A stretch of DNA of 32,000 nt from Geobacter sulfurreducens PCA (GTDB taxonomy: Bacteria; Desulfobacterota; Desulfuromonadia; Geobacterales; Geobacteraceae): contig NC_002939.5 in assembly GCF_000007985.2 (NCBI RefSeq), positions 2,340,001 to 2,372,000 on the forward strand, given 5' to 3'. Position 1 is the first letter of the stretch. The number at the start of each line of letters is the position of its first letter. This document shows positions 699 to 32,000 of this stretch, piece after piece. The position numbers were made by a program, and so were the translations under genes. Below the pieces are notes generated by a model, which did no database searches, was not told the origin of the DNA, and was given only the letters and a program-made list of their open reading frames with translations.

Positions 699-2064
699 TC
701 CGGCCGGTGGCATGACAGACATCGGCAACGGTGTGAATCTGGACCGCCGTACAAAGATCGTTCCTATTGCCATCCCCGATGCAGACAGGAAACGGCACAC
801 TTTTGTCTTCGGAACCACAGGGGTCGGCAAAACCCGTCTGTGTGAAAATCTGATCGAACAGGACATCCGCAAGGGGTATTCGGTGGTCTATTTTGATCCC
901 AAGGGTGACCAGCAGATCTTCACCAAGATTTACGAAGTGGCCAGAGATAGTGATCGCCTTGAAGAATTGATGCTCGTCACTCCCATTTTCCCGGAATACT
1001 CAGCTGTGGTTGATCCCATGGCCTTCTATTTCATGCCGGATGAACTGGTTGGACATATTGTTTCGGGCATCATGGGCGGACGCGAGCCGTTTTACCGGAA
1101 CATCGCCAAGGAGATCACCACTGCCGTAATCTCCGCCTACATTATTCAGTCGAAACGACACGGCAACCTGCCCATCCTGAATATTGATGAAATACGGAAG
1201 CGCATACGCCGGGAGTCACTCGACTCAACCATGAAATCTCTCCGTAGCATCGGTAATGCTGAAGCTGACCTGACAGCTGGCATGATCGAGGACATCCTGA
1301 AATCCCCTATGGAATATTATGCCAAGGTCTCGTCAACGCTACGCACCGCCCTGATGGAACTCTCGTCGGGCAATATTGGCAAGATCATCGGTCAGGCCGA
1401 CTCCAACCGTTTCATAAAGAATCTTGAGTCCGGCAAACCGGTCATCCTGGTAGTCCATACCGGCGCCATGATCACCCGCGAGGCCTCTGCTACCCTCGGC
1501 AAAGTCCTTCTCTCCATGATTCAATCCTTTGTGGGACGGGTGTACCTCTCCAACCGCCAGAAGGTCAATCCTCCGCTCTCCATCTTCATCGATGAGGCGC
1601 AGAGCCTGCTTTACCAAGGCGTGGAGGAGCTGTTCGCCAAAGCTGGATCAGCCGATGTCATGGTAACCGCTTTCGCTCAATCGGTGAACCAGGTCTATGC
1701 CGTCATCGGTGAAGAGTTCGGCAAGAGTATCCTCGACAACACCAACACCAAAATTTTCATGCGCTGCTCCGATGCTGAGACAAGCGATTACGTGGTCAAG
1801 CATTTCGGCGTACAGAATGTGCTGACCGGGATATTCGGCTCGAATCAGGTTACGACCCGTGAGGTCGAACAGGACATTCTGCGGGTTCAGGATGTCTTGA
1901 GCCTGAAGCCGCGGGAATTTTACATGATGACCTACTCGGGACGCTTCAAGGGGACCACTAATGACGCCCATGAACCCAAGATGAAGATCATCTTTCCGGA
2001 AGCGCCGGCGGTTATCACCTCAAAGCTGTCTCAATCTAAGCCTGCAACGCCGCCCTCGCCATGA
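670..2064 (+). CDS. VirD4/TraD/TraG-family coupling-protein-like P-loop ATPase, no N-terminal TM segment
   Basis: ATG at 670. Walker A is FGTTGVGKTRL and Walker B-like is SIFIDEAQSL. The TraG/TraD C-terminal pattern NTNTKIFMRCSDAETSDYVVKHFG is present. No hydrophobic N-terminus is visible. The stop overlaps the next start (ATGA at 2061-2064). Confidence 0.7.
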   Translation: MSLFKKRIINPAGGMTDIGNGVNLDRRTKIVPIAIPDADRKRHTFVFGTTGVGKTRLCENLIEQDIRKGYSVVYFDPKGDQQIFTKIYEVARDSDRLEELMLVTPIFPEYSAVVDPMAFYFMPDELVGHIVSGIMGGREPFYRNIAKEITTAVISAYIIQSKRHGNLPILNIDEIRKRIRRESLDSTMKSLRSIGNAEADLTAGMIEDILKSPMEYYAKVSSTLRTALMELSSGNIGKIIGQADSNRFIKNLESGKPVILVVHTGAMITREASATLGKVLLSMIQSFVGRVYLSNRQKVNPPLSIFIDEAQSLLYQGVEELFAKAGSADVMVTAFAQSVNQVYAVIGEEFGKSILDNTNTKIFMRCSDAETSDYVVKHFGVQNVLTGIFGSNQVTTREVEQDILRVQDVLSLKPREFYMMTYSGRFKGTTNDAHEPKMKIIFPEAPAVITSKLSQSKPATPPSP

Positions 2065-3491
2065 ATGCGACGCTGTTAGGAATATCAGCAACTGTCGGAA
2101 TCGGCTTTGCTATTTATGGGACAAGGAAATGGCTGCCAAAGGAAACTCCTGAACCACAAGAGGAGAAACAGTTTGAGGTGGCCAAGCTGGCCGAGTTGAG
2201 CCACCTCTGGAAAGACCGTGAGGTACAAATAAAAGACGCAGCAAATCTCTGGAGGGAACAGTCCCAGGAGAACAACTCTGCTACGCCTCGCCCATCATTT
2301 ACCCATACAGAAATCGAGCGGTTTTTCAGCGAAATGATCGAACACCGCTCATCAATCAATGGAATCCGCAGAGACCTGATAATCTGGCTGCTCAATCTGC
2401 TCGACAAGGAGGGTGACTGCCCATCCGTTGTCAGGAAACACAAAGACGAGGCTGAACGGATCTATTCGGAGGATTCGTATGCCATGCTTGAGGCAGTTCC
2501 GCTCTACCGCCATACACTGACAGTGGCCCGCAACTTCATTGCCAAGGCTGACCAGGAGGCTTTGCTGGCGGATATTATCCTCATTGCCCTGGCCCATGAC
2601 ATCGGCAAGATCCCCTCGTATCACGACGGCATGTACAGCAGCGGCGACCATCCGATCATTGCCGGGCTCATCCTGAATGGAATACCGGAATTCGTTTCCC
2701 TCCCGAATAAGGAGGATATTCTTCGTGCCGTGACCGGTCACCATCTGATGAAGAGCGACAACATCCTGACGGATGGTCTCAAACAGAGCGATCATGAGGC
2801 ACGCCAGTCCGAACTGTCAGCACTTTATTTGAAGATGCGGGAGCAAAAGAACAGACGCACTGAAAACGGCGTTGACACGCAGTTCGCCGCGGAAGAAATG
2901 GAACCCACGTTCGCCAGACCAGCAACAACAGAACTTCCATCGGCAGAACGGGCAGACCCGCTCGGATTTGCTCTCGCCAAGGAGAAGTACACACCACAGC
3001 TGATAAATATCCCGGAATGCATTGATCCCGATGCAGTAATCGAGTCGCTGAAAAACAGGATAAATGTGGTTGAGTCCACCCCAAAAGGTGATCAGTGGTC
3101 TGTGGTTTCCATGCCCAACGGAGTGATCTATGTCAACCCCGATGCACTCTGGGAAACCATCAAGGAAGTCAGCAATTATGATCCCTTGGTTTATGCCTCG
3201 GAAGGCTTCGAGGCGGAGAAACGGAATCTGATGCACTCCGTTATCACGGAGTTGGCCAGAACCAAGCAGGCCCTGGCAACCGAATACGTGGCGGACGGGT
3301 ACTACACATCGAAGGTTTCCATCATTACCGGAGGAGGCAAACGACTATCCCATCTACTGATTCCCCTCACTGCTCAGTCGTTCGGCGTAACAGCGTCTGA
3401 ACTGGAAGAACAGAAATCAGCGCAACTGAAGAGAATGGTTAAAGATATCAAGCATAAGAACAAGGAGGTGGAACAATGCGTTGGCCGTTGA
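2061..3491 (+). CDS. membrane-anchored HD-superfamily (HDIG-type) phosphohydrolase domain protein
   Basis: ATGA overlap with the upstream gene. N-terminal hydrophobic segment LLGISATVGIGFAIYG. HD signature LIALAHDIGKIP, followed by GDHPIIAG and TGHHL. Confidence 0.7.
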   Translation: MNATLLGISATVGIGFAIYGTRKWLPKETPEPQEEKQFEVAKLAELSHLWKDREVQIKDAANLWREQSQENNSATPRPSFTHTEIERFFSEMIEHRSSINGIRRDLIIWLLNLLDKEGDCPSVVRKHKDEAERIYSEDSYAMLEAVPLYRHTLTVARNFIAKADQEALLADIILIALAHDIGKIPSYHDGMYSSGDHPIIAGLILNGIPEFVSLPNKEDILRAVTGHHLMKSDNILTDGLKQSDHEARQSELSALYLKMREQKNRRTENGVDTQFAAEEMEPTFARPATTELPSAERADPLGFALAKEKYTPQLINIPECIDPDAVIESLKNRINVVESTPKGDQWSVVSMPNGVIYVNPDALWETIKEVSNYDPLVYASEGFEAEKRNLMHSVITELARTKQALATEYVADGYYTSKVSIITGGGKRLSHLLIPLTAQSFGVTASELEEQKSAQLKRMVKDIKHKNKEVEQCVGR

Positions 3492-4315
3492 TGGCTGCGG
3501 CAATGCTCTCGCTGTCAGTATCCGCCTCTGCAAGCTACTACACCGATTCTGCCACTGGATGGTGGTGGTACCAGAAGGAACCGGAGAAGCAGGCCGAGAA
3601 GCCCGCCAGAAAGAAGAAGCCGGCAAAGCCCGTCCCGTCCCTCAAGGACTACACCTATGAGCAGATCTGGGAGATGCATCCCGACCAGTTTCAGGAATTC
3701 GCCGAGGCGTTGAAGAAGAAGGCGGTCCAGAAGCCGAGCGAAGAGAATGTGAAGGAGTATTTCGAGGTACAGGAGATAGCCCGCAAGAAGGCGCTCGCCT
3801 TTTCCAACGTGGCCCAGTTTGTCTGGCAGAAATACCCGGAGCTGACCACGAAAAAGGACTACCCAATCACCACCCCCGGCAACCTGGCCCGGATCTCACA
3901 GATCAACGAGGAACGGCAGCGCGTGTTGCGGGACAACCGGGACGACTTCGCTCTGGTCTACTTCCAGCGGCCCGACTGCAGCTACTGTGATGAGCAATCC
4001 CGCATTCTCGACTGGTTCACCAACGAAACGGGCTGGACCGTGAAGAAGGTCAACATCAGTGAGAACACGGGACTTGCCGCCAAATTCAGCGTGGAGATCA
4101 CCCCGACCCTGATCCTGATCCAGAAAGGGAATCAGGATTACCTGCCGGTTTCAGCCGGGGTCATCTCGGCCGACGAAATCGAGGACAAGGCGTACCGGGC
4201 AGTGCGTCTGCTGAGGGGGGACATCTCCCCGGAGGAGTATTCGCTCTATGAATTCCAGAAGGGAGGCGGCTTCGATGTGAAGAAGCGCCGCCTCCAAGAC
4301 AAGAATCAGCCGTGA
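3476..4315 (+). CDS. traF: F-type conjugal transfer protein TraF/TrbB-like, thioredoxin fold with CxxC
   Basis: RBS AAGGAGG lies just upstream of the ATG at 3476. Signal peptide MRWPLMAAAMLSLSVSASA and a GWWWYQ motif are present. The C-terminal thioredoxin-like half carries FQRPDCSYCDEQ. Confidence 0.7.
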   Translation: MRWPLMAAAMLSLSVSASASYYTDSATGWWWYQKEPEKQAEKPARKKKPAKPVPSLKDYTYEQIWEMHPDQFQEFAEALKKKAVQKPSEENVKEYFEVQEIARKKALAFSNVAQFVWQKYPELTTKKDYPITTPGNLARISQINEERQRVLRDNRDDFALVYFQRPDCSYCDEQSRILDWFTNETGWTVKKVNISENTGLAAKFSVEITPTLILIQKGNQDYLPVSAGVISADEIEDKAYRAVRLLRGDISPEEYSLYEFQKGGGFDVKKRRLQDKNQP

Positions 4316-4352
4316 GGTCCCGGTCCAACAGCTACAGAGAAGAGGTGCCCGT

Positions 4353-5837
4353 GTGAAACGAACCGTATGTACCAGAACTACCGCCGCCTGCCTGGCGGCA
4401 GCGATAGCATTGAACCCGGTCCTGTCCTGGTCCGGCTGGGTCGATGACTGGGTGCAGCAGAAAAGCTCCACCTCGCCCAGTTATTACGAAGGGTCAAAGC
4501 GTGGCTACTATACCGGGGGGAGCTTTTCGGCCAGGTGGGCGAACACCGACGACCACCTGTTCACTGCCTCGCTCCCGAAGCTGAAATCCGGCTGCGGCGG
4601 CATTGACATGTTCCTCGGCGGTTTCTCGTTCTTGAACGTGGACTACCTGGTGCAGAAGCTCCAGAACATTCTGTCGGCAGCACCGGCAGCGGCCTTTGAC
4701 ATCGCCCTTAAGACCCTGGCGCCCCAGGTGGCCGACACCATCAAAACCCTCGAAGCCATCACCGACCGGCTTAATTCGCTGCAGCTGAACGACTGCAAGG
4801 CGGCCAAGGCGCTGGTGGCGACCTCTGCCAGTCCGTTTTCGTCGGTCATGTCGGACAGCCTGAAGGCGGAGATGAAGACAGCCCAGACCGACTTCATGGT
4901 ATCAAGCGGCGCCAAGGATCTCTACCAGGATGTCAGCAAGCTGTTCGAGAGCGAGCAGAAGGCCAACGCCGGCAACAAACCTGGAGTTCCCGGCACTACC
5001 CAGACCTCGGCCACCAGTGCCACCGCCGGTTGCCCGGCCGAAGTCCTGCAGATATTCGGAGACGGTTCGGTTCTGGAAAACCTGGCCAGCAAGAAAGGGA
5101 TGAATAGTGATTACGTCAAACTGGTGCGCGGCTTCATCGGCGATGTAGTGATCCAGAGCCCTGCGACGACCGGCACCACCTACCAGGCCCAGTACGTTCC
5201 CCCGTGCGACAAGAACAACAGCTTCGATTCCTTCATCAGCGGCTCCGCTCAGGGGCGTGATACCGCCGGGGCCTGTGCCGACATCACCGACGCCAACAAG
5301 AACCTGATGGTCTATGTGGCCGGCAAGATGCAGTCCATCGCCGGAAAGATCAAATCAAAGACTGCTCTCACCGCCGATGAGGAAGCGTTCCTCAAGAGCA
5401 CGCCGCTGTCGGTCGGGCTGATCCTCAAGAACGCCACGGCCACCAATACTGAAAGCGAAGTCATCGGCAAGCTTGCTGAACTGACTGCTCGGGCCTACGG
5501 CTATTACATGCTGCTCGACCTGTTCGGGCGGGCGGTGCAGTTGCAAGAGATGGCCCGGAACATCATGTCCACCCAGAAGGGGAACAAGTCCGGCGCCTCT
5601 CCGGAGACCTGCCAACTGGCGCTCCTTGGTGAAGGGATGCAGCACATTCAGACTCTGGAGGAAAAGACGCTGCAACTACTCACTGTGGCCCAGCAGAGTT
5701 ACGCAAATGCGGCATCGGAAATCAATGCGGTGGAGATGATCGTCCAGAACATGAAGAAGTTCGACGATACGGTATTTTCGGAATTATCGGATCGCTTCGG
5801 CAAAGGGATTGCCCTGCGGGCAACCGGCAGAATCTAA
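4353..5837 (+). CDS. traH: F-type conjugal transfer protein TraH
   Basis: GTG start preceded by GAGAAGAGG. N-terminal signal-like segment. The SGCGGIDMFLGGFSFLN motif and the roughly 490-aa size are characteristic of TraH. Confidence 0.75.
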   Translation: MKRTVCTRTTAACLAAAIALNPVLSWSGWVDDWVQQKSSTSPSYYEGSKRGYYTGGSFSARWANTDDHLFTASLPKLKSGCGGIDMFLGGFSFLNVDYLVQKLQNILSAAPAAAFDIALKTLAPQVADTIKTLEAITDRLNSLQLNDCKAAKALVATSASPFSSVMSDSLKAEMKTAQTDFMVSSGAKDLYQDVSKLFESEQKANAGNKPGVPGTTQTSATSATAGCPAEVLQIFGDGSVLENLASKKGMNSDYVKLVRGFIGDVVIQSPATTGTTYQAQYVPPCDKNNSFDSFISGSAQGRDTAGACADITDANKNLMVYVAGKMQSIAGKIKSKTALTADEEAFLKSTPLSVGLILKNATATNTESEVIGKLAELTARAYGYYMLLDLFGRAVQLQEMARNIMSTQKGNKSGASPETCQLALLGEGMQHIQTLEEKTLQLLTVAQQSYANAASEINAVEMIVQNMKKFDDTVFSELSDRFGKGIALRATGRI

Positions 5838-6122: not shown

Positions 6123-6187
6123 TATGGCGGCCCCGGTTTTCTTGGACACGAAAATGAGGTAAATCTAGGTGTTCAAGGAGGTCGTCA

Positions 6188-6550
6188 ATGGAAAAGGATG
6201 TCAGTGTCTCCGGTGCGGCGGAAGGAGAGCGTAGCTCGACTGGAGCAGCACCGGAAGTCAAACGTTGGAGCGCCAACCGCAAAAAGGAGGTTGTCCTGCG
6301 GTTGATGCGCGGTGAACCAATCGATGCCTTGTCCCGTGAGTTGGGCATCGAAATCTATCGCCTGGAAGAGTGGCATCAGAAAGCACTCCAGGGGATAGAA
6401 TCTGCTCTCAAGGCTCGTGAAGGTGATCCGTTGGCAGCGGAACTCGATGCAGCCTTCAAGCGCATCGGTGAGATCACCATGGAAAACGAGCTACTGCGGG
6501 AGAAAGCGAGGCGTGCCCACCCTTTGGCCCAGAGGAGATCGAAGAAATGA
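6188..6550 (+). CDS. IS3-like transposase OrfA (HTH plus coiled coil)
   Basis: RBS AGGAGG upstream. HTH-like EVVLRLMRGEPIDALSRELGIEIYRLEEW is followed by a heptad-like region. The stop overlaps the orfB ATG (ATGA at 6547-6550). Confidence 0.85.
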   Translation: MEKDVSVSGAAEGERSSTGAAPEVKRWSANRKKEVVLRLMRGEPIDALSRELGIEIYRLEEWHQKALQGIESALKAREGDPLAAELDAAFKRIGEITMENELLREKARRAHPLAQRRSKK

Positions 6551-7437
6551 GTGCTACGATCTCCCCTGCCACCGGTAAAGCCTATGGCGTTCAGCGCGTC
6601 TGCCTTGCCTGGGGAGTGCCCCGCTCGTCGTTCTATAGCCGTGCAGGCAGAAAAACATTGCCTGCTGTACTGCTCAAGCGTGGTCCAAAAACACCGCTCT
6701 CTGACGACGAGGTACTTTCTCTCATCCGGACCGACCTGGAGACATCCCCCTTTGTCGGCGAAGGGCACCGTAAGGTCTGGGGACGACTACGCTTCGTCAA
6801 AGGGATAAAAGTCGGCCGCAAACGAGTGTTGCGTCTCATGCGGGAGAACAATCTGCTCTCCCCTCACCGGGTTGTTCAGGGACAGCCCAAGGACCACGCC
6901 GGCAAGATCATCACGGCGGCCCCCAACGTCATGTGGGGTACCGATGGCACCAAGATCTTCACCCTGGAAGAAGGGTGGTGCTGGTTGTTTACCGCCGTCG
7001 AGCATTGGAATGCCGAGTGCGTCGGTTGGCATGTGACCAAGAATGGCGACCGGTTTGCCGCATTGCAGCCGCTCGCCATGGGAATCAAGGCCCGTTTCGG
7101 CTCGGTCGGTGCCGCTGCTGCTCGAGGGTTGGCACTGAGGATGGATCACGGCAGCCAATACCTCTCAGAGCATTTCCAGAATCAGATCAAGTTCTGGGGA
7201 ATTGCCCCAAGTTTCTCATTTGTTGCCGAACCGCAGACCAACGGGGTGACGGAACGGTTTAATCGGACTATCAAAGAGCAGGTCATCTATGGCCGCCATT
7301 ACCGCACAATCGAAGAAGTAAGGATGGCAGTAGCTGACTTCATGGATCGTTACAACCGGCTGTGGCTGGTTGAAAAGCTCGGGTTCAGAAGCCCACGACA
7401 GGCTTTCGAGGAGTATCAACTCAAGAAGGCTGCGTGA
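6547..7437 (+). CDS. IS3-like transposase OrfB (integrase core, DDE)
   Basis: It lies in the -1 frame relative to orfA. Candidate catalytic residues are in WGTDGT, MDHGSQY and PQTNGVTERFNRTIKEQ. Confidence 0.85.
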   Translation: MSATISPATGKAYGVQRVCLAWGVPRSSFYSRAGRKTLPAVLLKRGPKTPLSDDEVLSLIRTDLETSPFVGEGHRKVWGRLRFVKGIKVGRKRVLRLMRENNLLSPHRVVQGQPKDHAGKIITAAPNVMWGTDGTKIFTLEEGWCWLFTAVEHWNAECVGWHVTKNGDRFAALQPLAMGIKARFGSVGAAAARGLALRMDHGSQYLSEHFQNQIKFWGIAPSFSFVAEPQTNGVTERFNRTIKEQVIYGRHYRTIEEVRMAVADFMDRYNRLWLVEKLGFRSPRQAFEEYQLKKAA

Positions 7438-7473
7438 CTCTTATCTTGTGTCCAGGGTACCGGGCGCGCTACA

Positions 7474-7487
7474 GATTCGTGAAGAAA
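7474..7487. repeat. 14-bp target-site duplication, right copy (GATTCGTGAAGAAA)
   Basis: Identical to 6109-6122. Confidence 0.9.
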
Positions 7488-9828: not shown

Positions 9829-10170
9829 TTAAATTGCTGAGCTTCCCCGTTCATTTGTTCTGATCTTCACTACGTCGTCGATTGTGGATATGAATATCTT
9901 CCCGTCACCCGTGTTGCCGGTATGGGCATACTTTTGAATCACGTTGACAACATCATCAACCATGTCATCAGCCACAACGACCTCCAGCTTGACACGAGGG
10001 ATGAACTCCACCATTTCATAGAGAATCTTGTCCGTGGCGTTCCTTGCTTTACCTTTGCCGAATCCCTTGATTTCCGAAACCGTCACGCCGGGCATGCCAT
10101 CAATGGCGTGAAGTTCCTCGGCGACATCCCGTAATTTCCCTGGCCGAATGATTGCTTTTATCTCTTTCAT
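9829..10170 (-). CDS. P-II (GlnB-like) family signal-transduction protein, efflux-pump-linked type
   Basis: MKEIKAIIRP...GFGKGK...VKLEVVV...TGNTGDGKIFIS...IRTNERG matches the P-II fold motifs (T-loop and B-loop). I prefer the ATG at 10170 (RBS AGGAG 7 nt upstream) over the listed 10197. It lies directly after the RND gene stop (10201). Confidence 0.8.
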   Translation of the reverse strand: MKEIKAIIRPGKLRDVAEELHAIDGMPGVTVSEIKGFGKGKARNATDKILYEMVEFIPRVKLEVVVADDMVDDVVNVIQKYAHTGNTGDGKIFISTIDDVVKIRTNERGSSAI

Positions 10171-10200: not shown

Positions 10201-13200
10201 CTACATCTCTTCTTCAATTTTCCGATTCTCAAACCAGCCGTACACCGCCGGGATGATCAACAGAGTCAGCAGGGTCGAGGTAATCAAGCCACCCACAACG
10301 ACCGTTGCCAGCGGCTTCTGGATCTCCGACCCGGTGCCCTGTGCCAGCAGCATCGGCATCAGGCTGAAGATGGCGATGGATGCTGTCATCAGCACCGGTC
10401 GCAACCGGTCAACGGCCCCTTTGCGGATCGCCTCACCGAGTTCCATCCCTTCATCCCTGAGCTGCGCGATGCGGGACACCAGTACCAGTCCGTTCAGCAC
10501 CGCCACCCCAAAGAGGACGATAAATCCGACCGACGCCGGGACCGAAAGATACTGACCGGAGAGGAAGAGCGAAAAGATGCCGCCGATGAGCGCGAATGGC
10601 AGGTTGGAAATCACCAGCAGCGCCAGGCGAATGGAGCGGAAGGTGACGTAGAGCAGCAAGAGGATCAGACCGATGGCTACCGGGCCGATGATCATCAGCT
10701 TGTTCATGGCCCGTTGCTGGTTTTCGAACTGGCCGCCCCATGTGAGATAATACCCGGGGGGAAGTTTGACCTGATCCTTGATCTTTGCTTTCGCCTCGGC
10801 CACAAAACTCCCCATATCCCGGCCGGTGACGTTCATCTCGATGCCGATCCTCCGCACGCCGTCCTGACGGCTGATCTGCACCGGTCCCTCTACCATCTTC
10901 ACTTCGGCCAGCTGTTCCAGCGGAATGTTCATCCCTGTTTTGGTGGTGATTAGCAGGTTCTTGATGGTCTCAATGGAGTTCCGCTTCTCCTCTGGCAGCC
11001 GGACCGTGATGTCGAAGCCCCGGTTTACCTCATAGAAAGTGGAAGCCGCCTTGCCTGCCACCGCTATCTCGATGACATTCTGCACGTCGCTGATATTGAG
11101 GCCGTAGCGGGCAATTTTGGCCCGGTCGATGGTGACGGTCAGGTAGGGCTGGCCCGAGACCTTTTCCGTGTTCAGATCGGTCCCACCCCTGACAGTGGAA
11201 AGCACCTTGGCTATTTCCGCCGACTTGTCCCGCAGTACGTCAAGGTCTTCGCCGAACAGCTTGACGATCAATTGGGCTCGTGTGCCGGCCACCAGTTCGT
11301 CGATGCGGCACTGGATCGGCTGGCTGAAGCCGAAGCTGATCCCCGGGATGGTCTCCAGCGCCTCACGCATCTCGTTGGTCAACTCTTCCTTGGAGATATC
11401 CCGCTTCCATTCGCTCTTCGGCTTGAACACGCCCACGTAGCCGGTTTTGTCCACGCCACGGGTGTCGAGGGCGACGCCGGTCTGGCCGATGCGACCGATA
11501 ACCACATCCAGTTCGTCGAACGTCTTCAATTTGGCGGCAGCCTGCTGGTTCACCTCCTGCGATTTGGCCAGGGAAACACCGGGAAGCATGGAGATATCCA
11601 TGTCAAAGGAGCCTTCATCCATAATCGGGATAAACTCCGATCCCAGCCTGGTCACCAGGAACAATGAGACCACCAGCAACCCGCCAGCAATGCCGAGGAC
11701 GACCTTTTTCTTGTTCAGCGCATACTCCAGCATCGGCAGATACTGGCTCTTGGCATAGGCCATGATCCTGCTGTCTTTTTCCTCCTCCGGTTTGAGAAAC
11801 AGGCTGCAGAGCACTGGGATGATAAAGATGGAAAGGAGCAGAGAGGAAAGCAAGGCGATGGCTACGGTGATGGCTAGCGGGCCGAACATCTTCCCTTCGA
11901 TCCCTTCCAGGGTCAGGATCGGGATGAAGGTGAGGGCGATTATCAGTTCACCGAAGATGCTCGGCTTGCGCACCTCCATGACCGCCTTGAGCACCGTAGC
12001 GAGCTTGGGGTGCAGATGCCCCTCCTCGCTCAGATGCCGCTGGACGTTCTCCACCTGTATGATGGTGGTGTCGATGATCATGCCGATGGAGATGGCCAGG
12101 CCGCCAAGGGACATGAGGTTGGCGGTAATCCCAGTCAGTTTCATGACGATGAAGGTCGCCAGGAGCGACAGCGGCAGCGCGAGCAGCACGACGATACTGC
12201 CGCGAATGCTGTTCAACAGCAGGTAGAGCACGATCAGCACCAGGATGGAGCCTTCGATCAGCGCCTTGTTGACCGTTCCGACACTGGCCTTGACGATATC
12301 GCTCCGGTCGTAATAGGGAACCATCTTGACCCCATCCGGCAGCATGTTGCTTTCGTTGATCTCCTTGACCTTGGCCGCCACCCGGCGCACTACGTCGCGG
12401 CTGTTCTCGCCCCGCAGCATCATGACAATGCCGCCAACCGCCTCGTCGGCACCGTTTTTGATGGCGGCCCCCATGCGAACCGCCTCGCCTACTTTGACTT
12501 GCGCCACGTCACGCAGATACGTGGGTGTGCCTCCGGTGGATTTCAGGACGATATTCTCGATATCACTGATGCTCTGTATCAGGCCGACGCCGCGCACGAT
12601 GTACTGGTCCGTGCCCCGTTCCAGGATATTGCCGCCGACGTTGCTGTTGTTGCTGCCGATGGCGTTATACACATCGTCCACGGTGACCCCGTATTTGACC
12701 AGCTTCTCCGGCGAGACGAGCACCTGGTACTGCTTGAAATAGCCGCCGAAGGAGTTGATCTCGTTCACCCCGGCGACGCTCTTCAACTGGGGAGTGATGA
12801 CCCATTCCTGCATGGTGCGCAGGTTGGTCAGATAGGCCCGTTTCTGTTCCGGGTCCTGGGGCACCTTCCCTTCCAGGGTGTACTGGTAGATCTCCCCCAT
12901 GGCGGTGCCGATGGGCCCCATGGCGACCTGAACACCCTTCGGCACCTTCTCCCGCGCCTCGGCCAGCCGTTCGAAAACCAGCTGCCGGGCGAAGTAGATA
13001 TCCACATTGTCCTTGAAGACGATGGTGACAATGGAGAGGCCGAACTTGGTCACGGAGCGGAGCTGCTCGATGTCCGGCAGGCCGCGCATGGACATTTCTA
13101 TCGGGTAGGTGACATTCCGTTCGATTTCGACCGCCGACAGGCCATCGGCGTGGCTGACCACTTCCACCTGGATGTTGGTTACATCCGGGAAGGCGTCAAT

Positions 13201-16568: not shown

Positions 16569-16633
16569 TATGGCGGCCCCGGTTTTCTTGGACACGAAAA
16601 TGAGGTAAATCTAGGTGTTCAAGGAGGTCGTCA

Positions 16634-16996
16634 ATGGAAAAGGATGTCAGTGTCTCCGGTGCGGCGGAAGGAGAGCGTAGCTCGACTGGAGCAGCACCGG
16701 AAGTCAAACGTTGGAGCGCCAACCGCAAAAAGGAGGTTGTCCTGCGGTTGATGCGCGGTGAACCAATCGATGCCTTGTCCCGTGAGTTGGGCATCGAAAT
16801 CTATCGCCTGGAAGAGTGGCATCAGAAAGCACTCCAGGGGATAGAATCTGCTCTCAAGGCTCGTGAAGGTGATCCGTTGGCAGCGGAACTCGATGCAGCC
16901 TTCAAGCGCATCGGTGAGATCACCATGGAAAACGAGCTACTGCGGGAGAAAGCGAGGCGTGCCCACCCTTTGGCCCAGAGGAGATCGAAGAAATGA
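16634..16996 (+). CDS. IS3-like transposase OrfA (copy 2)
   Basis: Translation identical to 6188-6550. Confidence 0.85.
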   Translation: MEKDVSVSGAAEGERSSTGAAPEVKRWSANRKKEVVLRLMRGEPIDALSRELGIEIYRLEEWHQKALQGIESALKAREGDPLAAELDAAFKRIGEITMENELLREKARRAHPLAQRRSKK

Positions 16997-17883
16997 GTGC
17001 TACGATCTCCCCTGCCACCGGTAAAGCCTATGGCGTTCAGCGCGTCTGCCTTGCCTGGGGAGTGCCCCGCTCGTCGTTCTATAGCCGTGCAGGCAGAAAA
17101 ACATTGCCTGCTGTACTGCTCAAGCGTGGTCCAAAAACACCGCTCTCTGACGACGAGGTACTTTCTCTCATCCGGACCGACCTGGAGACATCCCCCTTTG
17201 TCGGCGAAGGGCACCGTAAGGTCTGGGGACGACTACGCTTCGTCAAAGGGATAAAAGTCGGCCGCAAACGAGTGTTGCGTCTCATGCGGGAGAACAATCT
17301 GCTCTCCCCTCACCGGGTTGTTCAGGGACAGCCCAAGGACCACGCCGGCAAGATCATCACGGCGGCCCCCAACGTCATGTGGGGTACCGATGGCACCAAG
17401 ATCTTCACCCTGGAAGAAGGGTGGTGCTGGTTGTTTACCGCCGTCGAGCATTGGAATGCCGAGTGCGTCGGTTGGCATGTGACCAAGAATGGCGACCGGT
17501 TTGCCGCATTGCAGCCGCTCGCCATGGGAATCAAGGCCCGTTTCGGCTCGGTCGGTGCCGCTGCTGCTCGAGGGTTGGCACTGAGGATGGATCACGGCAG
17601 CCAATACCTCTCAGAGCATTTCCAGAATCAGATCAAGTTCTGGGGAATTGCCCCAAGTTTCTCATTTGTTGCCGAACCGCAGACCAACGGGGTGACGGAA
17701 CGGTTTAATCGGACTATCAAAGAGCAGGTCATCTATGGCCGCCATTACCGCACAATCGAAGAAGTAAGGATGGCAGTAGCTGACTTCATGGATCGTTACA
17801 ACCGGCTGTGGCTGGTTGAAAAGCTCGGGTTCAGAAGCCCACGACAGGCTTTCGAGGAGTATCAACTCAAGAAGGCTGCGTGA
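16993..17883 (+). CDS. IS3-like transposase OrfB (copy 2)
   Basis: Translation identical to 6547-7437. Confidence 0.85.
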   Translation: MSATISPATGKAYGVQRVCLAWGVPRSSFYSRAGRKTLPAVLLKRGPKTPLSDDEVLSLIRTDLETSPFVGEGHRKVWGRLRFVKGIKVGRKRVLRLMRENNLLSPHRVVQGQPKDHAGKIITAAPNVMWGTDGTKIFTLEEGWCWLFTAVEHWNAECVGWHVTKNGDRFAALQPLAMGIKARFGSVGAAAARGLALRMDHGSQYLSEHFQNQIKFWGIAPSFSFVAEPQTNGVTERFNRTIKEQVIYGRHYRTIEEVRMAVADFMDRYNRLWLVEKLGFRSPRQAFEEYQLKKAA

Positions 17884-17919
17884 CTCTTATCTTGTGTCCA
17901 GGGTACCGGGCGCGCTACA

Positions 17920-17933
17920 AATAACCGTAATAT
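17920..17933. repeat. 14-bp target-site duplication of IS3-like copy 2, right copy
   Basis: Identical to 16555-16568. Confidence 0.9.
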
Positions 17934-27584: not shown

Positions 27585-27769
27585 GCGGCCTCCAGCCAAA
27601 ATAAGTTCACCCGTACAGCAATTACTTTTCGGATGCAATCCCCTTATCTTTAGCATATCGATAGCAAATGACCAGAATCTCGAAAATCACTTTATCGCCA
27701 AATTTGTTTCAAAGTATTTCAGCGCTATTCCGGCATATTAGCAATACATTTTGACATTGACACATGAAG

Positions 27770-28087
27770 TTATGGTCTGCTATGAAACTCGTATATTTTA
27801 GACTCTTTCAGAGAAAGAGACTCCGCAAGCCATAGCGCTTCCGGACAAACTTCTTCGGAAAGCCCGAGGAAGAATCGCCCCGGCAGGGATGAAATTCCCG
27901 GATAGATCAGGCTGCTGTTGCCCCTGTCCGGATGAGATTCGGAGGCATGTTTGCCAACCGAGCAGTCGTTTGGGTAAAGCGACGTAAATCCAAGCAGCAG
28001 TGCGTCCAATTTCCGGAGCACACACAATTCCCGCAAAATAATGACCCGTTCCGGCTTAGCTGGAGTGGGTTTTTTGTTGCTCGACAT
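27770..28087 (-). CDS. possible small hypothetical protein (105 aa), weak support
   Basis: Internal ATG at 28087 of the listed 148-aa ORF. No convincing RBS and no recognisable motif. It lies in an otherwise unassigned 0.6-kb region upstream of ssb. Confidence 0.2.
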
Positions 28088-28134
28088 CCGCGACAAGCCT
28101 TGTAAGCGGCGGGTACTTTCACCACATCCCGACC

Positions 28135-28209
28135 GGGAGACGATCTGTTCTCTCCCCACCGGGACGGACAAAAGTCTCCTTGCTTCGGGAAAACCAACAA
28201 GGAGGCAGT
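28135..28209 (+). promoter_or_regulatory. structured leader of ssb with a sequestered Shine-Dalgarno sequence
   Basis: GGGAGA (28135-28140) pairs with TCTCCC (28151-28156). GTCTCCTTG (28174-28182) pairs with CAAGGAGGC (28198-28206), which contains the SD for the ATG at 28210. Confidence 0.5.
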
Positions 28210-28629
28210 ATGGCAAGTCTGAATCGCGTGGAACTCATCGGCAACCTGGGACGTGACCCTGAAATCAGGTACACACCAGGAGGCACCGCTGTCGCAAGTT
28301 TTTCACTCGCGACCAGTGAGAAGGTCAAGAACAAGAGCGGCGAATGGGAAACCCGCACCGAGTGGCACAACATCGTCCTCTACGCACGTCTCGCAGAAGT
28401 AGCTGGCGAGTATTTGTCGAAAGGGAAAAGTGTCTACCTCGACGGTAAACTCAAGACCCGCAAATGGCAAGATCGGGACGGTAAAGATCGCTACACAACC
28501 GAGATCATCGGCGACAAGCTTCTTATGCTTGGTAGTAAAAATGGCAGCATTCCTGACGGGAGTGACGACCAGCCATCAAACAGCCAGGCACATGAGGACA
28601 TTCCGCACGATGACACCGATCCGTTCTAG
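28210..28629 (+). CDS. ssb: single-stranded DNA-binding protein
   Basis: AAGGAGG RBS. OB fold [25 protein letters not shown]...TEWHNIVLY...[13 protein letters not shown]. Acidic tail ending DDTDPF. Confidence 0.9.
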
Positions 28630-28659
28630 GTAACAAGCAACCACAACCAACAGTCCCAC

Positions 28660-28738
28660 GGGGAGACATTACCAAATCCCCAAAGGGATTGGTCTGTCTT
28701 CTCTGTCGGACACAACCCACAGAAAAGGAGACAGACAG
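28660..28738 (+). promoter_or_regulatory. structured leader with a sequestered Shine-Dalgarno sequence (same architecture as the ssb leader)
   Basis: GGGGA (28660-28664) pairs with TCCCC (28677-28681). TGTCTTCT (28695-28702) pairs with AGGAGACA (28726-28733). The ATG is at 28739. Confidence 0.5.
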
Positions 28739-29695
28739 ATGAACGCACCAGCTCAAATCATTCCCATCAGTCCCACCGCATCATCCCTAACTCACCACGC
28801 CGTCAACATCAGTGAACTGAAGGCCCAGGTAAACCTGATCCAGTACGTCATGCGTGACGTCATGAAATCAGGCGAGCACTACGGCACCATTCCCGGCTGC
28901 GGAGACAAAGCAGTTCTTCTCAAACCGGGCGCCGAAAAGCTCATGCTTACCTTCAGACTGGCGAACGACGTGGAGGTGGAAACCATCGATATGCATCTCG
29001 GCCATCGTGAGTATCGCATCAAGGTGACGCTCTACTCACCTGCAGGCCAGCGTCTTGGTACCGGTGTCGGTTCATGCTCGACCATGGAAAGCAAGTATCG
29101 TTTCCGTGTCGGGCCAGTTGAACTGACGAATAAACCGGTACCGAAGGAATACTGGGATATTCGCAAGGAGAACCCGGCAAAGGCGCAAGAGATCATTGGT
29201 GGACGCGGCTTCAGCGCAAAAAAGGATGACAGCGGCAACTGGAAAATTGCCAGGCAGGGAGAAAAAGTCGAACACGACAATCCTGCCGATTTCTACAACA
29301 CCTGCCTGAAAATGGCCAAGAAGCGGGGCTTGGTGGATGCAGTACTTACCTCAACCGCTGCTTCGGACATATTCACCCAGGACATTGAGGAAGATCCTGA
29401 CCTTTACGGACAGACGGAACACAACGGAGGAAACAGTGCCGGCAACACCAGCACTACCTCCGGGACTTCACAAACTGCCAAACCGGACAGTGCCCCATCA
29501 TCCAACGAAGCCGAACCTGTTTCGACTTCCGAGATCATCGGGTATCTGACCGCCAAAGGGATCAGGATGGAACTCTCCGCAGACGAATCGGAGATCTCCG
29601 CCTTCCCGGACTTCAACGACACCTCAGCCCGCCAATGGCTGAAAGACCACGGATTCAAATGGGACGGCAAAGGCAAATGCTGGCAGTACCGGTAG
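28739..29695 (+). CDS. putative recombination/single-strand-annealing protein with Ser/Thr-rich linker and small C-terminal domain
   Basis: It occupies the position between ssb and a nuclease. Motifs LLKPGAEKLMLTF, GVGSCSTMESKYRFR and NTCLKMAKKRGLVDAVL resemble the beta-beta-alpha core of Rad52-superfamily phage annealing proteins, but I cannot name the family. The C-terminus is WLKDHGFKWDGKGKCWQY. Confidence 0.4.
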   Translation: MNAPAQIIPISPTASSLTHHAVNISELKAQVNLIQYVMRDVMKSGEHYGTIPGCGDKAVLLKPGAEKLMLTFRLANDVEVETIDMHLGHREYRIKVTLYSPAGQRLGTGVGSCSTMESKYRFRVGPVELTNKPVPKEYWDIRKENPAKAQEIIGGRGFSAKKDDSGNWKIARQGEKVEHDNPADFYNTCLKMAKKRGLVDAVLTSTAASDIFTQDIEEDPDLYGQTEHNGGNSAGNTSTTSGTSQTAKPDSAPSSNEAEPVSTSEIIGYLTAKGIRMELSADESEISAFPDFNDTSARQWLKDHGFKWDGKGKCWQYR

Positions 29696-29739
29696 TGCCT
29701 GACGTTCCAGACTGAACTCCACTCACAACCTACCTCAGC

Positions 29740-29819
29740 AGGGAGACAACGACTTTCTCCCTACCGGGGGTGTCTTGTCTCTTCTGCCGGGTACAACCCA
29801 CAGACAAGGAGACAAGATC
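29740..29819 (+). promoter_or_regulatory. structured leader with a sequestered Shine-Dalgarno sequence (homologous to 28660-28738)
   Basis: AGGGAG (29740-29745) pairs with CTCCCT (29757-29762). TGTCTCTT (29776-29783) pairs with AGGAGACA (29807-29814). The 39-nt core is 33/39 identical to 28695-28733. Confidence 0.5.
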
Positions 29820-29984
29820 ATGACTACCCACATCATCAAGCACGTAACAATCAAAGGCTGCCAGGTGCCGGTCTATGCGCCCGTCAAGGAGCGACAAATC
29901 AGCATCGATGTCACCAGGATCATTGCCGGCGTTATTTTCGGTTCCCTGCTCACCGCAGTTGGAACCTTACCGTTTCTGATCTGA
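29820..29984 (+). CDS. small protein (54 aa) with C-terminal TM helix
   Basis: ATG at 29820 with an AAGGAGA RBS. The C-terminus IIAGVIFGSLLTAVGTLPFLI is hydrophobic. The listed start at 29775 lies inside the leader. Confidence 0.5.
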   Translation: MTTHIIKHVTIKGCQVPVYAPVKERQISIDVTRIIAGVIFGSLLTAVGTLPFLI

Positions 29985-29997
29985 AAAGGAGACAGCC

Positions 29998-30972
29998 ATG
30001 AGCAAACTCGCTGCATTTCTGGGACGGGCTATTCCGACCCATCAGCAGAAACAATCCTCACACCTCGGTGACCGAACCTTGTACGTCGGAGCATCCGATA
30101 TTGCCGGCTGTCCACGCAAAGCGGCACTCGGCAAACAAAACCCGACCGGTCACGACATCAAAACACTCCTTCGTTTTTCCCGTGGCCACGCCGCGCAAGC
30201 CATGTATGCCGATTTCTTCAGGACCGGTGGCGCTCTCTTCGAAGAAGAAGTCGAAGTGCGGCATCCGGCTATACCTGAGATCAGGTGTCACATCGACTTC
30301 CTGTTCTATGCAAACCGGCAGACCAAACGGCTGCACATCGTGGAGATGAAGTCGACCGACGGCATCCCCGACGAACCCTACGCATCATGGGTGGATCAAC
30401 TGCATGTCCAGATGGGCCTGCTGCAACTCACCCTTGATCCGGCAGTGGAAATCGGTGGTTCGATCCTGGTGGTGGACCTCAATGCGGGATCGTACCATGA
30501 GTTCAACAGCTATACACCCAACAGACTGGTATTCGACCAGCTTGTGGAAAAGGGAAAGCATATCCTTGCAGCAGCGCGAGGCGAGTGCGCTCCCCGAACC
30601 GAACCAGGTATTCTCTGCGGTTACTGTCCGTTTCGCACCGGCTGTCCTTCCCATGCCGTCGCCCTGGATCTCCCCCGGGAGATACTTGATACCGGCAGGA
30701 AGTATCTGGAGCTGAATGAACAAAAGAAGGCTCTCGAAAACCGACTGGACGTCCTGAAGAACGACATTCTCACCTTTGCGGATGGCACGTTCAAAGGGGC
30801 TTCGGACGGAATACTGATCAATGTCACCTCAGTGGCTGATTCGACAACCATCGACAGCTACAAGCTCAAGAGAAACTATCCAGATATATACGATCAGGTA
30901 ACGAAACCGAAGTCAGGTTACGTCAAACTTGAAATCAAGCCATTCACGCCGCTCGCAGCTCAAGCGGCTTGA
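29998..30972 (+). CDS. PD-(D/E)XK nuclease, Cas4/RecB-like with four-Cys cluster
   Basis: AAGGAGA RBS. N-terminal GASDIAGCPRKAAL. Catalytic HIDFLF...HIVEMKS (D...ExK). C-terminal CGYCPFRTGC (CX2CX5C), which together with the N-terminal Cys gives the Cas4/AddB-type Fe-S pattern. An extra C-terminal tail of about 100 aa follows. Confidence 0.75.
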   Translation: MSKLAAFLGRAIPTHQQKQSSHLGDRTLYVGASDIAGCPRKAALGKQNPTGHDIKTLLRFSRGHAAQAMYADFFRTGGALFEEEVEVRHPAIPEIRCHIDFLFYANRQTKRLHIVEMKSTDGIPDEPYASWVDQLHVQMGLLQLTLDPAVEIGGSILVVDLNAGSYHEFNSYTPNRLVFDQLVEKGKHILAAARGECAPRTEPGILCGYCPFRTGCPSHAVALDLPREILDTGRKYLELNEQKKALENRLDVLKNDILTFADGTFKGASDGILINVTSVADSTTIDSYKLKRNYPDIYDQVTKPKSGYVKLEIKPFTPLAAQAA

Positions 30973-30985
30973 ACCAACCCCACCA

Positions 30986-31056
30986 GGGGGCATCACGCTC
31001 CCCATGGGAACTCTCCATTCATGGAGGCGTGCGCCCCCATTGAAAGGAGATTATCG
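30986..31056 (+). promoter_or_regulatory. nested long-range stem-loop in the intergenic region
   Basis: The outer stem pairs GGGGGCATCACGC (30986-30998) with GCGTGCGCCCCC (31027-31038). The inner hairpin is CTCCAT-TC-ATGGAG (31013-31026). SD AAGGAG at 31044-31049 and ATG at 31057. Confidence 0.45.
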
Positions 31057-31260
31057 ATGAAAATCTATCGTACCGGCACGTTACCGCCTGACCTCAAGTC
31101 CTTCACCCGCGAGAACAGATTCGAAGATCTGAAGGAGGCTCTTCAGACCATAGCGTCGCTGATCCTCATAGCTGTAATGCTCTTCGTGTTCATGTTTGCC
31201 GCTGCAACTCCACCGGAACCCCAGGTTTATCCAAAGGGCTGGGAGGAGGTACGAGGATGA
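31057..31260 (+). CDS. small TM protein (67 aa)
   Basis: ATG at 31057 with an AAGGAG RBS. Central hydrophobic helix IASLILIAVMLFVFMFAAA. The stop overlaps the next ATG (ATGA). Confidence 0.5.
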   Translation: MKIYRTGTLPPDLKSFTRENRFEDLKEALQTIASLILIAVMLFVFMFAAATPPEPQVYPKGWEEVRG

Positions 31261-31526
31261 ATGGACCGGGCAACATTATCTGCTCAGGAGATGAAATACA
31301 TCTTCCTGCTGTCGCCATGGAAGAGGTCAACCTGTCACTGCATGGGGCAAACCGCTTCCTGGAGCGCGACATTCCGCTTGAGGCCGTCGAAGGTGTCCGT
31401 CACCTTCTGCCGCTCCTCAACGAGAAGCCGCTCAGATTCAGGTACAAAGGGGTACTTGTCGTTGCCCGACTGGTCAACGGTTCACCCAGGATCATCACTG
31501 CCTGGAAAGTCCCTCCCTCAGCATAG
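31257..31526 (+). CDS. small hypothetical protein, possibly DUF4258-like
   Basis: ATGA coupling to the upstream gene. LSLHGANRFLERDIPLEAVEGV...VLVVARLVNGSPRIITAWK loosely fits the DUF4258 pattern (H-A-x-x-R...ER-x-I...TV-x). Confidence 0.35.
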   Translation: MNGPGNIICSGDEIHLPAVAMEEVNLSLHGANRFLERDIPLEAVEGVRHLLPLLNEKPLRFRYKGVLVVARLVNGSPRIITAWKVPPSA

Positions 31527-31566
31527 CAATCACACGGCAGCACACTGCCGGAACAAGGAGGCCATT

Positions 31567-31971
31567 ATGAGCCCAAAGATTCCACGGCCAAAGGCTGTTA
31601 CCGGTTTCACCATCGAACGCCGGTCGTCATGCGGCAAAATCTACACTACGGTAACACTCTCTCCGGGCACCGCTGTTCCCATGGAAATATTCGTGCGCTT
31701 TGGCAAAGCCGGAGGGTGCGGTTCCGCCATGGCCGACGGCATTGCCCGGCTGGTCTCGTACGGTCTCCGTTCGGGACTTGAAGCAACCGATGCTGTCAAA
31801 GCATTGAGCGGTATCGGCTGTCATCTGGGGAGCAATACCTGTCTCAACTGCGTTGCCGAATCAATCCGCCTGGTACTTGTACATCTTGATACCGGACGGG
31901 ATCTGAACGACTTGATTGAGGAAGCGGCTCTTGCAGAGGCAAACGCCGTAAGCGCCCACGAATTCAACTGA
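31567..31971 (+). CDS. stand-alone TSCPD domain protein
   Basis: AAGGAGG RBS and ATG at 31567. PMEIFVRFGKAGGCGSAMADGIARLVSYGLRSG...LSGIGCH...CLNCVAESI matches the TSCPD domain known from the C-terminus of class II ribonucleotide reductases. The listed 31261 start is an out-of-frame overlap with the previous gene. Confidence 0.65.
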   Translation: MSPKIPRPKAVTGFTIERRSSCGKIYTTVTLSPGTAVPMEIFVRFGKAGGCGSAMADGIARLVSYGLRSGLEATDAVKALSGIGCHLGSNTCLNCVAESIRLVLVHLDTGRDLNDLIEEAALAEANAVSAHEFN

Positions 31972-32000
31972 CACACACTACCCATCGACACCTGGCAGGG

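Follow-up and report, generated by a model that had tools for sequence, protein, structure and literature searches.

Here we analyzed a 32,000-nucleotide stretch of Geobacter sulfurreducens PCA DNA (NC_002939.5, positions 2,340,001 to 2,372,000; hereafter the window), in which a structured leader recurs ahead of the genes of one operon. Four full leaders lie on the + strand upstream of the ATGs at 28210, 28739, 29820 and 31057. The genes that follow, all on the + strand, are ssb (28210-28629; assigned from the list of open reading frames (ORFs), Pfam and PHROGs), a 318-aa gene (28739-29695) with no Pfam family and a match to phrog_10048, 'unknown function', a 54-aa membrane-protein gene (29820-29984), and a 67-aa gene (31057-31260). 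The original prediction, read from the letters of the window, described the leader as four tracts: a purine tract resembling a Shine-Dalgarno (SD) sequence (P1), a pyrimidine tract paired to it (Y1), a second pyrimidine tract (Y2), and the SD itself (P2), complementary to Y2. Since P1 is also complementary to Y2, a closed fold (P1:Y1 plus Y2:P2) and an open fold (P1:Y2) were proposed to exclude each other. The layout was placed ahead of the first three genes, where every tract and start-codon coordinate matches the window sequence, but the count of three was too low, as there are four full leaders and the start of a fifth.

Leader copies in the window and in related elements

The leaders are 85-95 nt long. 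Each of leaders 1-3 folds as RNA into two hairpins, with hairpin 1 combining P1:Y1 and an outer stem a:a' that was absent from the original list of tracts (for example, TCCCG at 28127-31 with CGGGA at 28160-64), and hairpin 2 formed by Y2 and the SD. All three fold better than dinucleotide shuffles. They were scored with two covariance models, R1 and R2, built from copies in this and related elements, and within the window R1 gave 48-70 bits for leaders 1-3 (E 7e-16 to 2e-10). Leader 1, ahead of ssb (28123-28212, +; R1 48 bits, R2 54 bits, fold z = -3.1), has tract a at 28127-31, P1 at 28135-41, Y1 at 28151-56, a' at 28160-64, Y2 at 28174-82, and P2/SD at 28198-206. For leader 2, ahead of the 318-aa gene (28649-28741, +; R1 70 bits, R2 73 bits, fold z = -5.5), the same tracts lie at 28651-57 (a), 28660-68 (P1), 28677-81 (Y1), 28685-91 (a'), 28692-706 (Y2), and 28719-37 (P2/SD), and the core tracts first given for Y2 (28695-702) and P2/SD (28726-33) were confirmed. 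Leader 3, ahead of the 54-aa membrane-protein gene (29729-29822, +; R1 67 bits, R2 70 bits, fold z = -4.6), carries P1 at 29741-48, Y1 at 29757-62, Y2 at 29776-83, and P2/SD at 29807-14. A recount on the sequence gave the predicted 33/39 identity for the 39-nt core shared by leaders 2 and 3, and a repeat finder returned the repeat spanning this core as 57 nt at 75% identity. The TC/CT difference within Y2 exchanges a G-C pair for a G-U pair, also as described.

Leader 4 (30973-31059, +), ahead of the 67-aa gene, is a divergent variant that scores 25 bits with R1, from whose seed it was left out, and 44.8 bits with R2. Its P1, GGGGGC at 30986-91, is complementary to GCCCCC at 31034-39, within the second hairpin, and orthologous copies of this leader are present in related loci. 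Throughout the leaders of the 67-aa membrane-protein family (30973-31059 in the window, and 10322-10408 and 5213-5303 in the related loci L008 and L026), P1 pairs with a tract in the hairpin-2 loop just 5' of the SD, not with the usual Y2, through GGGGGCA/TGCCCCC and GGGAGGCGAC/GTCGCTCCC. The leader of this family is a rewired form of the same pairing competition. The fifth leader is cut by the window end, and only its first bases, CGACACCTGGCAGGG, are present (31986-32000, +); these match the starts of leaders at L008 11332-11418 and L014 13247-13333, and in related copies of the element, an integrative conjugative element (ICE), an AAA ATPase gene lies downstream.

Not every gene of the operon has its own leader. 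The RecE-like PD-(D/E)XK exonuclease gene (29998-30972, +; Pfam, PHROGs) directly follows the 54-aa gene, and the spacer between them (29985-29997, +) contains the same SD, AAAGGAGACAG, without a leader; a covariance-model match at 29944-30000 is weak (E = 0.5). One leader therefore serves a two-gene unit here, and leaders head translational units rather than every gene. Further along, the TSCPD-domain gene (ATG 31567) is preceded by only a small hairpin, CGGCAG..CTGCCG, and an SD (31527-31566), with no full leader. An 89-aa ORF at 31257 overlaps the stop codon of the 67-aa gene (ATGA).

Across related elements, covariance-model searches gave 169 matches at E<0.01 in 33 of 82 sources, including AT-rich copies in a Desulforegulaceae contig, and the gene strand carries all 169. 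With a profile of sequence alone, 130 copies were found. The hosts are ICEs and plasmids of Geobacter and Pelobacter relatives. Near-identical ICE copies, tagged by the 318-aa protein at 93-97% identity, occur in Geobacteraceae and Desulfuromonadaceae genomes, and more distant versions of the operon are found on plasmids pPRO1 (Pelobacter propionicus) and pSD (Geobacter anodireducens), both typed as MPF_F in PLSDB. Read directly, the intergenic spacers of both plasmids show the four-tract layout ahead of gene after gene. In the 49 kb of pPRO1 examined there are 14 copies, all within a 22-kb operon and with an annotated start codon at the end of each, and the + strand showed no copy among the transfer genes or elsewhere in those 49 kb. 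More than 20 unrelated gene families lie downstream of leaders, and gene order varies between elements. In all 51 aligned leaders the SD is followed by a start codon, at a spacing of 5-11 nt. The gap from the upstream stop codon to the leader start is typically 9-19 nt (median 13 nt; 19 nt or less in 34/51, and 34-388 nt in the others).

Among 2.9 million viral contigs, a pattern scan had 10 matches and only two weak model matches, and a phage origin was rejected because the family is essentially absent there. Where the 318-aa gene has distant homologues (Verrucomicrobia, Chlorobi, Desulfovibrio and others), no such leader was evident ahead of them. Upstream of one such homologue in Nitratidesulfovibrio (L049/L051, approximately 9960-10003), CCCTGTC adjoins GGGAGGACAG-C-ATG, which may form a simpler SD-sequestering hairpin. 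On pSD (L001 1123-1218), a complete leader is followed by a five-codon ORF (MAGQT); this copy has either lost its gene or serves a very short peptide.

Comparative evidence for two exclusive folds

Closed-fold statistics were taken from an alignment fitted to the closed fold, and open-fold statistics from one fitted to the open fold, which comprises P1:Y2 and a small Y1:a' stem. With the closed fold, 82.9% of cells are paired, and 182 cells show changes on both sides, compared with 85.6 +/- 7.9 after shuffling (0/500). Its covariation score is 0.295, while slid partners score 0.06-0.12. The open fold has 80.7% of cells paired, 107 double-change cells against 44 shuffled (0/500), and a covariation score of 0.304 compared with 0.10-0.19 for slid partners; eight of its nine P1:Y2 pairs have changed on both sides. 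Thus, both of the folds that were proposed to be mutually exclusive are backed by covariation in related elements.

Since covariation counts depend on the alignment, a register-free test was added, in which the tracts of 51 leaders (<85% identical) were paired with their own partners or with the partners of other leaders over 5000 permutations. The P1:Y2 helix has the strongest cognate specificity of all, at -16.0 kcal/mol for cognate and -11.6 kcal/mol for non-cognate partners, followed by Y2:P2 (-12.7 vs -9.5 kcal/mol) and P1:Y1 (-9.9 vs -8.1 kcal/mol); for each of the three, none of the 5000 permutations reached the observed mean. The outer stem a:a' is marginal (-7.1 vs -6.7 kcal/mol, p = 0.01). 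The other five of the six remaining tract pairings show no cognate advantage in these leaders, including Y1:a' (-7.1 vs -7.1 kcal/mol, p = 0.6).

P1 resembles the SD, and the same base is found in P1 and P2 at 208/339 aligned positions. Where they differ, Y2 pairs with P2 only in 67 cases and with P1 only in 18, but this comparison of P1, Y2 and P2 columns is confounded by the closed-fitted register and was replaced by a register-free test at matched P2. There, a leader's own P1 pairs with its Y2 5.2 kcal/mol better than do P1s from leaders with an equally fitting SD (33/39, p = 7e-7), so the resemblance of P1 to the SD does not account for the complementarity of P1 and Y2. Individual copies show the same, for example GCGGATAT/ATATCCGC and GCGGATCA/TGATCCGC, which are P1/Y2 pairs ahead of orthologous genes with the same SD, and the further pair GCAGAACA/TGTTCTGC. 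In GGGGCAAGCA/TGCTTGCCCC, the stretch of Y2 paired with P1 is one that the SD leaves untouched; copies with P1 pairing outside the SD contact include L001 4944, L014 17412 and L003 17443. At the level of comparative sequence evidence, the leader is thus shown to be a sense-strand element with two exclusive selected folds, one predicted to sequester the SD and the other to free it.

Strand, folding order and rival explanations

Assignment to the sense strand rests on wobble asymmetry and position, because total folding energies do not separate the strands. An A-C cell on the sense strand corresponds to a wobble pair on the opposite strand. P1:Y2 has 69 G-U and 17 A-C cells, and the closed helices 95 G-U and 52 A-C cells (binomial p = 5e-4). 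Together with the strict orientation and the built-in SD and start codon, this indicates that the leader acts as mRNA or, formally, as the sense DNA strand. The alternative raised in the original prediction, structure formed on transferred single-stranded DNA (ssDNA), is disfavored by the sense-strand wobble, by the SD and start codon in all aligned copies, and by the occurrence of all 169 matches on the gene strand.

We next consider the energies, which were computed at 37 C only. The closed fold is more stable than the open fold in each window leader, at -35.6 and -30.7 kcal/mol, respectively, for leader 1, -41.5 and -32.3 for leader 2, -40.7 and -33.0 for leader 3, and -36.0 and -31.7 for leader 4. 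Across the 51 leaders the closed-minus-open difference has a median of -3.8 kcal/mol and ranges from -17 to +6 kcal/mol; the minimum free energy structure at full length is closed in 34/51. When the transcript is ended just after Y2, before the SD, the computed structure is the open P1:Y2 fold in 46/51, so the pattern expected of delayed folding, open when nascent and closed at equilibrium, is found in computation. The nascent P1:Y2 helix is often 11-19 bp long and extends into tract a, and leaders 2 and 3 of the window, truncated in this way, are computed to fold as P1:Y2. The cost of opening the region from the SD to the AUG has a median of 7 kcal/mol, and replacing P1 by its complement in silico raises it from 7.0 to 11.5 kcal/mol (p = 2e-8). 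In these models, P1 is therefore shown to lower the computed cost of SD exposure.

We put the probability that the leader is a cis-acting two-state mRNA element, gating ribosome access to the SD of the next cistron, at roughly 0.7. From its sequence, we infer that it switches translation of each unit. In the closed state, hairpin 1 (a:a' and P1:Y1) would cage P1 while Y2 pairs with the SD; in the open state, P1 as an SD look-alike would pair with Y2 and leave the SD free. The 3' part of P1, GACA and in some copies as long as 8 nt, is unpaired in the computed hairpin-1 loop and could serve as a toehold for Y2. Folding order is the trigger that we favor, as a possibility suggested by the models at somewhat less than even odds. 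P1:Y2 would then form before the SD is synthesized, so that the SD emerges unpaired and is translated for a limited time, until Y1 and P2 displace the P1:Y2 helix and the RNA settles in the usually more stable closed fold. Translation of each unit would come in a brief pulse, coupled to continuing transcription and with a set-point specific to the gene. Slightly less probable still is the idea that the leader is a natural toehold strand-displacement timer, with a sequence-programmed delay, that permits translation only from fresh transcripts.

Several observations weigh against this account, some of them against its kinetic version in particular. The open fold is already the minimum in 12/51 full-length leaders, and leader 1 (ssb) keeps hairpin 1 even when truncated. 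Replacing Y1 by its complement in silico leaves SD accessibility unchanged on average. In the 51 leaders, covariation is missing from the small Y1:a' hairpin of the open fold, which was rejected as a selected helix for this reason. A direct-path refolding barrier of approximately 22 kcal/mol was obtained (findpath, nested model), which is an unreliable upper bound that excludes a plausible pseudoknot intermediate. Total folding energy does not differ significantly between sense and antisense strands with RNA or DNA parameters, and as DNA both strands fold comparably and better than shuffles (z = -2.7 to -4.0).

The same two RNA states might instead be set by a trans-acting factor or an upstream ribosome rather than by folding order, which we consider unlikely. 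Candidates would be an element-encoded RNA-binding protein or SSB clamping hairpin 1 to turn translation off, a small RNA titrating Y2 or P1, or a ribosome terminating on the preceding cistron and loosening a:a'. The layout is indeed that of a riboswitch expression platform with hairpin 1 in place of the aptamer helix, and most copies share GGGAG..CTCCC and GGAGACA/TGTCTCC cores, through which one factor could address all of them. Pairing in trans is also conceivable, since non-cognate P1:Y2 duplexes still reach approximately -12 to -14 kcal/mol. However, there is little sequence conservation in loops and bulges outside the paired tracts, with hairpin-1 loops varying in both sequence and length, and no candidate regulator was identified. 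Most leaders do lie close to an upstream stop codon, but judged by the extent of the ribosome footprint, the usual gap would leave a terminating ribosome just reaching tract a or falling short of it, and the remaining copies are much farther away; with its wide tail, the spacing fits upstream-ribosome coupling ambiguously and counts neither for nor against it. It is very unlikely that the hairpins act on ssDNA during conjugative transfer, as priming sites, ssDNA promoters or protection, with the overlap of the ribosome site being incidental. Such a role would suit an operon that looks like an establishment or leading region (ssb, primase, radC, DUF6094-domain protein, PD-(D/E)XK nuclease) in an ICE with a type IV coupling protein (T4CP), TraF and TraH, and the folding of both DNA strands is compatible with it; leading regions are known to use ssDNA hairpin promoters (PMC11541004, PMC13478746). 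Against it, the SD and start codon at SD-type spacing in every aligned leader are not needed by a DNA function, there is no -35/-10 pair inside the leaders, and each translational unit has its own copy, with as many as 14 in an operon, compared with single Frpo-type promoters. For the leading genes of F-like plasmids, it is the template (antisense) strand that is transferred, whereas the wobble bias of the leaders is to the sense strand.

Two further explanations dispense with the switch altogether. The leaders could be static intercistronic hairpins, serving as an mRNA stabilizer, an RNase processing site or a simple translational damper, in which the closed fold alone matters and P1:Y2 is a side effect of P1 copying the SD. 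This would agree with the closed fold being the minimum in most leaders, with the extensive identity of P1 and P2, and with Y2 pairing with P2 only more often than with P1 only in the closed-fitted alignment, but it is highly improbable, given that P1:Y2 covaries independently of P2, including in the three copies named above, that it has the strongest cognate specificity, that it prefers G-U over A-C by 4:1, and that the two folds are close in energy across copies. Least probable by our estimate, to the point of being nearly negligible, are DNA-level repeats, which would be either operators bound by a dimeric protein or boundaries at which recombination exchanges gene cassettes among elements. 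The GGAGACA / TGTCTCC / GGAGACA tracts are inverted repeats, and the many unrelated downstream families in differing gene order recall the start-associated sequences of Cluster K mycobacteriophages (PMC3203893). However, the tracts change with compensation instead of staying conserved, their pairing tolerates G-U and not A-C, and orientation is strict. Recombination at leaders may still occur as a by-product.

Related systems, conjugative setting and significance

The original statement that this is not a named RNA family holds for Rfam 15. At gathering thresholds, and including radC (RF01754) and STAXI, Rfam 15 gave no matches in the 32-kb window, and none in related loci totaling 128 kb, in which leader copies are plentiful. 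With the threshold relaxed to E<=10 for 27600-31600, only three chance-level matches appeared, all to unrelated families. The leader is a new RNA family in which a known principle takes on a new form, modular and repeated many times.

Translation limited to a window after synthesis is known from the maturation-protein gene of MS2 and from hok mRNA, whose ribosome sites are closed at equilibrium and open in the nascent chain. The leader resembles these in being computed as open when nascent and closed at full length. Theirs are single, idiosyncratic long-range structures, whereas the leader is a compact, modular cassette of approximately 90 nt with a dedicated fourth tract, its timing being computed. 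In repZ (IncI-alpha/IncB) and lambda cIII, translation is made possible by a distal upstream sequence that pairs close to, or against, the structure sequestering the SD; cIII mRNA has two alternative folds that differ in ribosome access, and repZ requires translation of a leader peptide and forms a pseudoknot. Both are single-gene cases, and the leader described here has no leader peptide. In only 4/50 leaders is the SD-like P1 followed by a start codon at a distance of 4-14 nt, and leader-peptide control of the repZ/repA type was rejected on this basis.

In its logic the leader is a riboswitch-type expression platform without an aptamer, consisting of an SD, an anti-SD, an anti-anti-SD and a fourth tract that cages the anti-anti-SD; these terms come from the thiM literature (PMC2018614). 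As in the thiamine pyrophosphate (TPP) riboswitch of E. coli thiM, the anti-SD (Y2) can pair with either the SD or an upstream anti-anti-SD (P1), with P1:Y1 comparable to the aptamer closing helix. The covariation of Y2:P2 and P1:Y2, which are mutually exclusive, is what would be expected of a sequesterable SD with a competing anti-anti-SD. In contrast, hairpin 1 of the aligned copies is a simple interrupted stem with a variable loop, and it lacks the conserved unpaired nucleotides and complex fold of an aptamer. Within a single operon the leader also recurs ahead of many cistrons, in contrast to one platform per operon.

The radC and STAXI motifs are candidate structured RNAs found beside ssb, antirestriction, integrase and radC genes of mobile elements, and for STAXI the question of RNA versus ssDNA was raised (Weinberg et al. 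2010, PMC2864571). They share with the leader a similar gene setting and the same question of RNA or ssDNA, with no detected similarity to it; STAXI is a tandem pseudoknot that is not linked to start codons, whereas the leader always includes the SD. The SAS/ESAS of Cluster K mycobacteriophages place a ribosome-site sequence in one orientation ahead of many unrelated genes, with an upstream inverted repeat in about half of them, and mRNA hairpins of the ESAS have little support, as departures are uncompensated (PMC3203893). The leader is likewise repeated, start-linked and in one orientation in a mobile genome; its compensation is strong, however, and neither its sequences nor its hosts are related to theirs. 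In Frpo-type ssDNA promoters, a long hairpin on the transferred strand carries -35/-10 boxes and is present once per gene cluster (PMC11541004, PMC9849209, PMC13478746). Like the leaders, they are structured nucleic acids in the establishment or leading region of conjugative elements, concerned with early-gene control, but the leaders are short, contain the SD, stand one per translational unit, and have sense-strand wobble. No promoter-like hexamer pair was found inside any leader. An intrinsic terminator or attenuator was set aside because the start codon follows hairpin 2, and a scan flagged only short Y1:a' stems before the T-rich Y2, without covariation. A REP/MITE-like mobile repeat does not agree with the strict gene-strand orientation and the ending of all 51 aligned leaders at an SD and start codon. 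For comparison with RNA thermometers (ROSE, fourU), whose SD hairpin melts at physiological temperatures, the relevant value is the 37 C opening cost given above. The leading-region literature that was searched discusses ssDNA promoters and codon adaptation, with no SD-gating leaders.

The window begins with genes for T4CP, a 476-aa HD-domain protein, which is possibly a MOBH-type relaxase, TraF and TraH (670-5837), which place it inside an ICE. Metal-resistance cargo and insertion sequence (IS) copies follow, and then the one-directional operon of ssb, the 318-aa protein, the 54-aa membrane protein, the RecE-like PD-(D/E)XK exonuclease, small proteins and the TSCPD protein. Across related elements the gene set of this operon comprises ssb, primase, radC, the DUF6094-domain protein, MoxR/DUF3150/VWA and a nuclease. 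It is likely an establishment or leading-type region by gene content, and only likely because the origin of transfer (oriT) was not located. The two IS copies, each 1356 bp with an rve-type transposase (6123-7478 and 16569-17924), are 99.8% identical and in direct orientation. Between them lies a block with a 1034-aa ORF, for which an RND-type efflux pump is a guess; the arrangement resembles a composite-transposon-like cargo insertion.

Within 28210-30972, ssb, the 318-aa protein (>7350 homologues) and the RecE-like exonuclease are grouped in an arrangement that looks like an SSB / annealing-protein / exonuclease recombination module, and on this basis the 318-aa family may be an unrecognized single-strand annealing protein. 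The approximately 465 nt at 27657-28122, 5' of ssb, are non-coding. They contain a sigma-70-like promoter, TTGACA-18-TATGAA, at approximately 27759-27794 (read by eye), a 5' hairpin at 27800-27822, and a terminator-like hairpin with a T run at 28043-28071. By eye, this stretch resembles pSD L001 280-600; an attenuator, an antitermination RNA and a small RNA are possible roles for it. The 366 nt upstream of ssb have no significant long ssDNA hairpin (z = -1.3), and an Frpo-like hairpin was rejected there, the promoter and terminator-like hairpin being present instead.

Work on the establishment of conjugative elements has centered on transcription, through ssDNA promoters and zygotic induction. 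The leader suggests that translation provides a second layer of control, with which almost all cistrons of such an operon are equipped. As a natural bistable RNA it is unusually clean, with two exclusive folds, covariation in more than 50 diverged copies, and a wide range of computed set-points, which together make control by folding order directly testable. The leader adds a well-defined family for RNA databases, would improve the annotation of ICEs and plasmids in Geobacter-type bacteria, and offers a compact, ligand-free part for synthetic biology. If the leader does act as a timer, it would give a self-limiting, gene-specific pulse of establishment proteins after entry into a new cell, without a protein or small RNA regulator.

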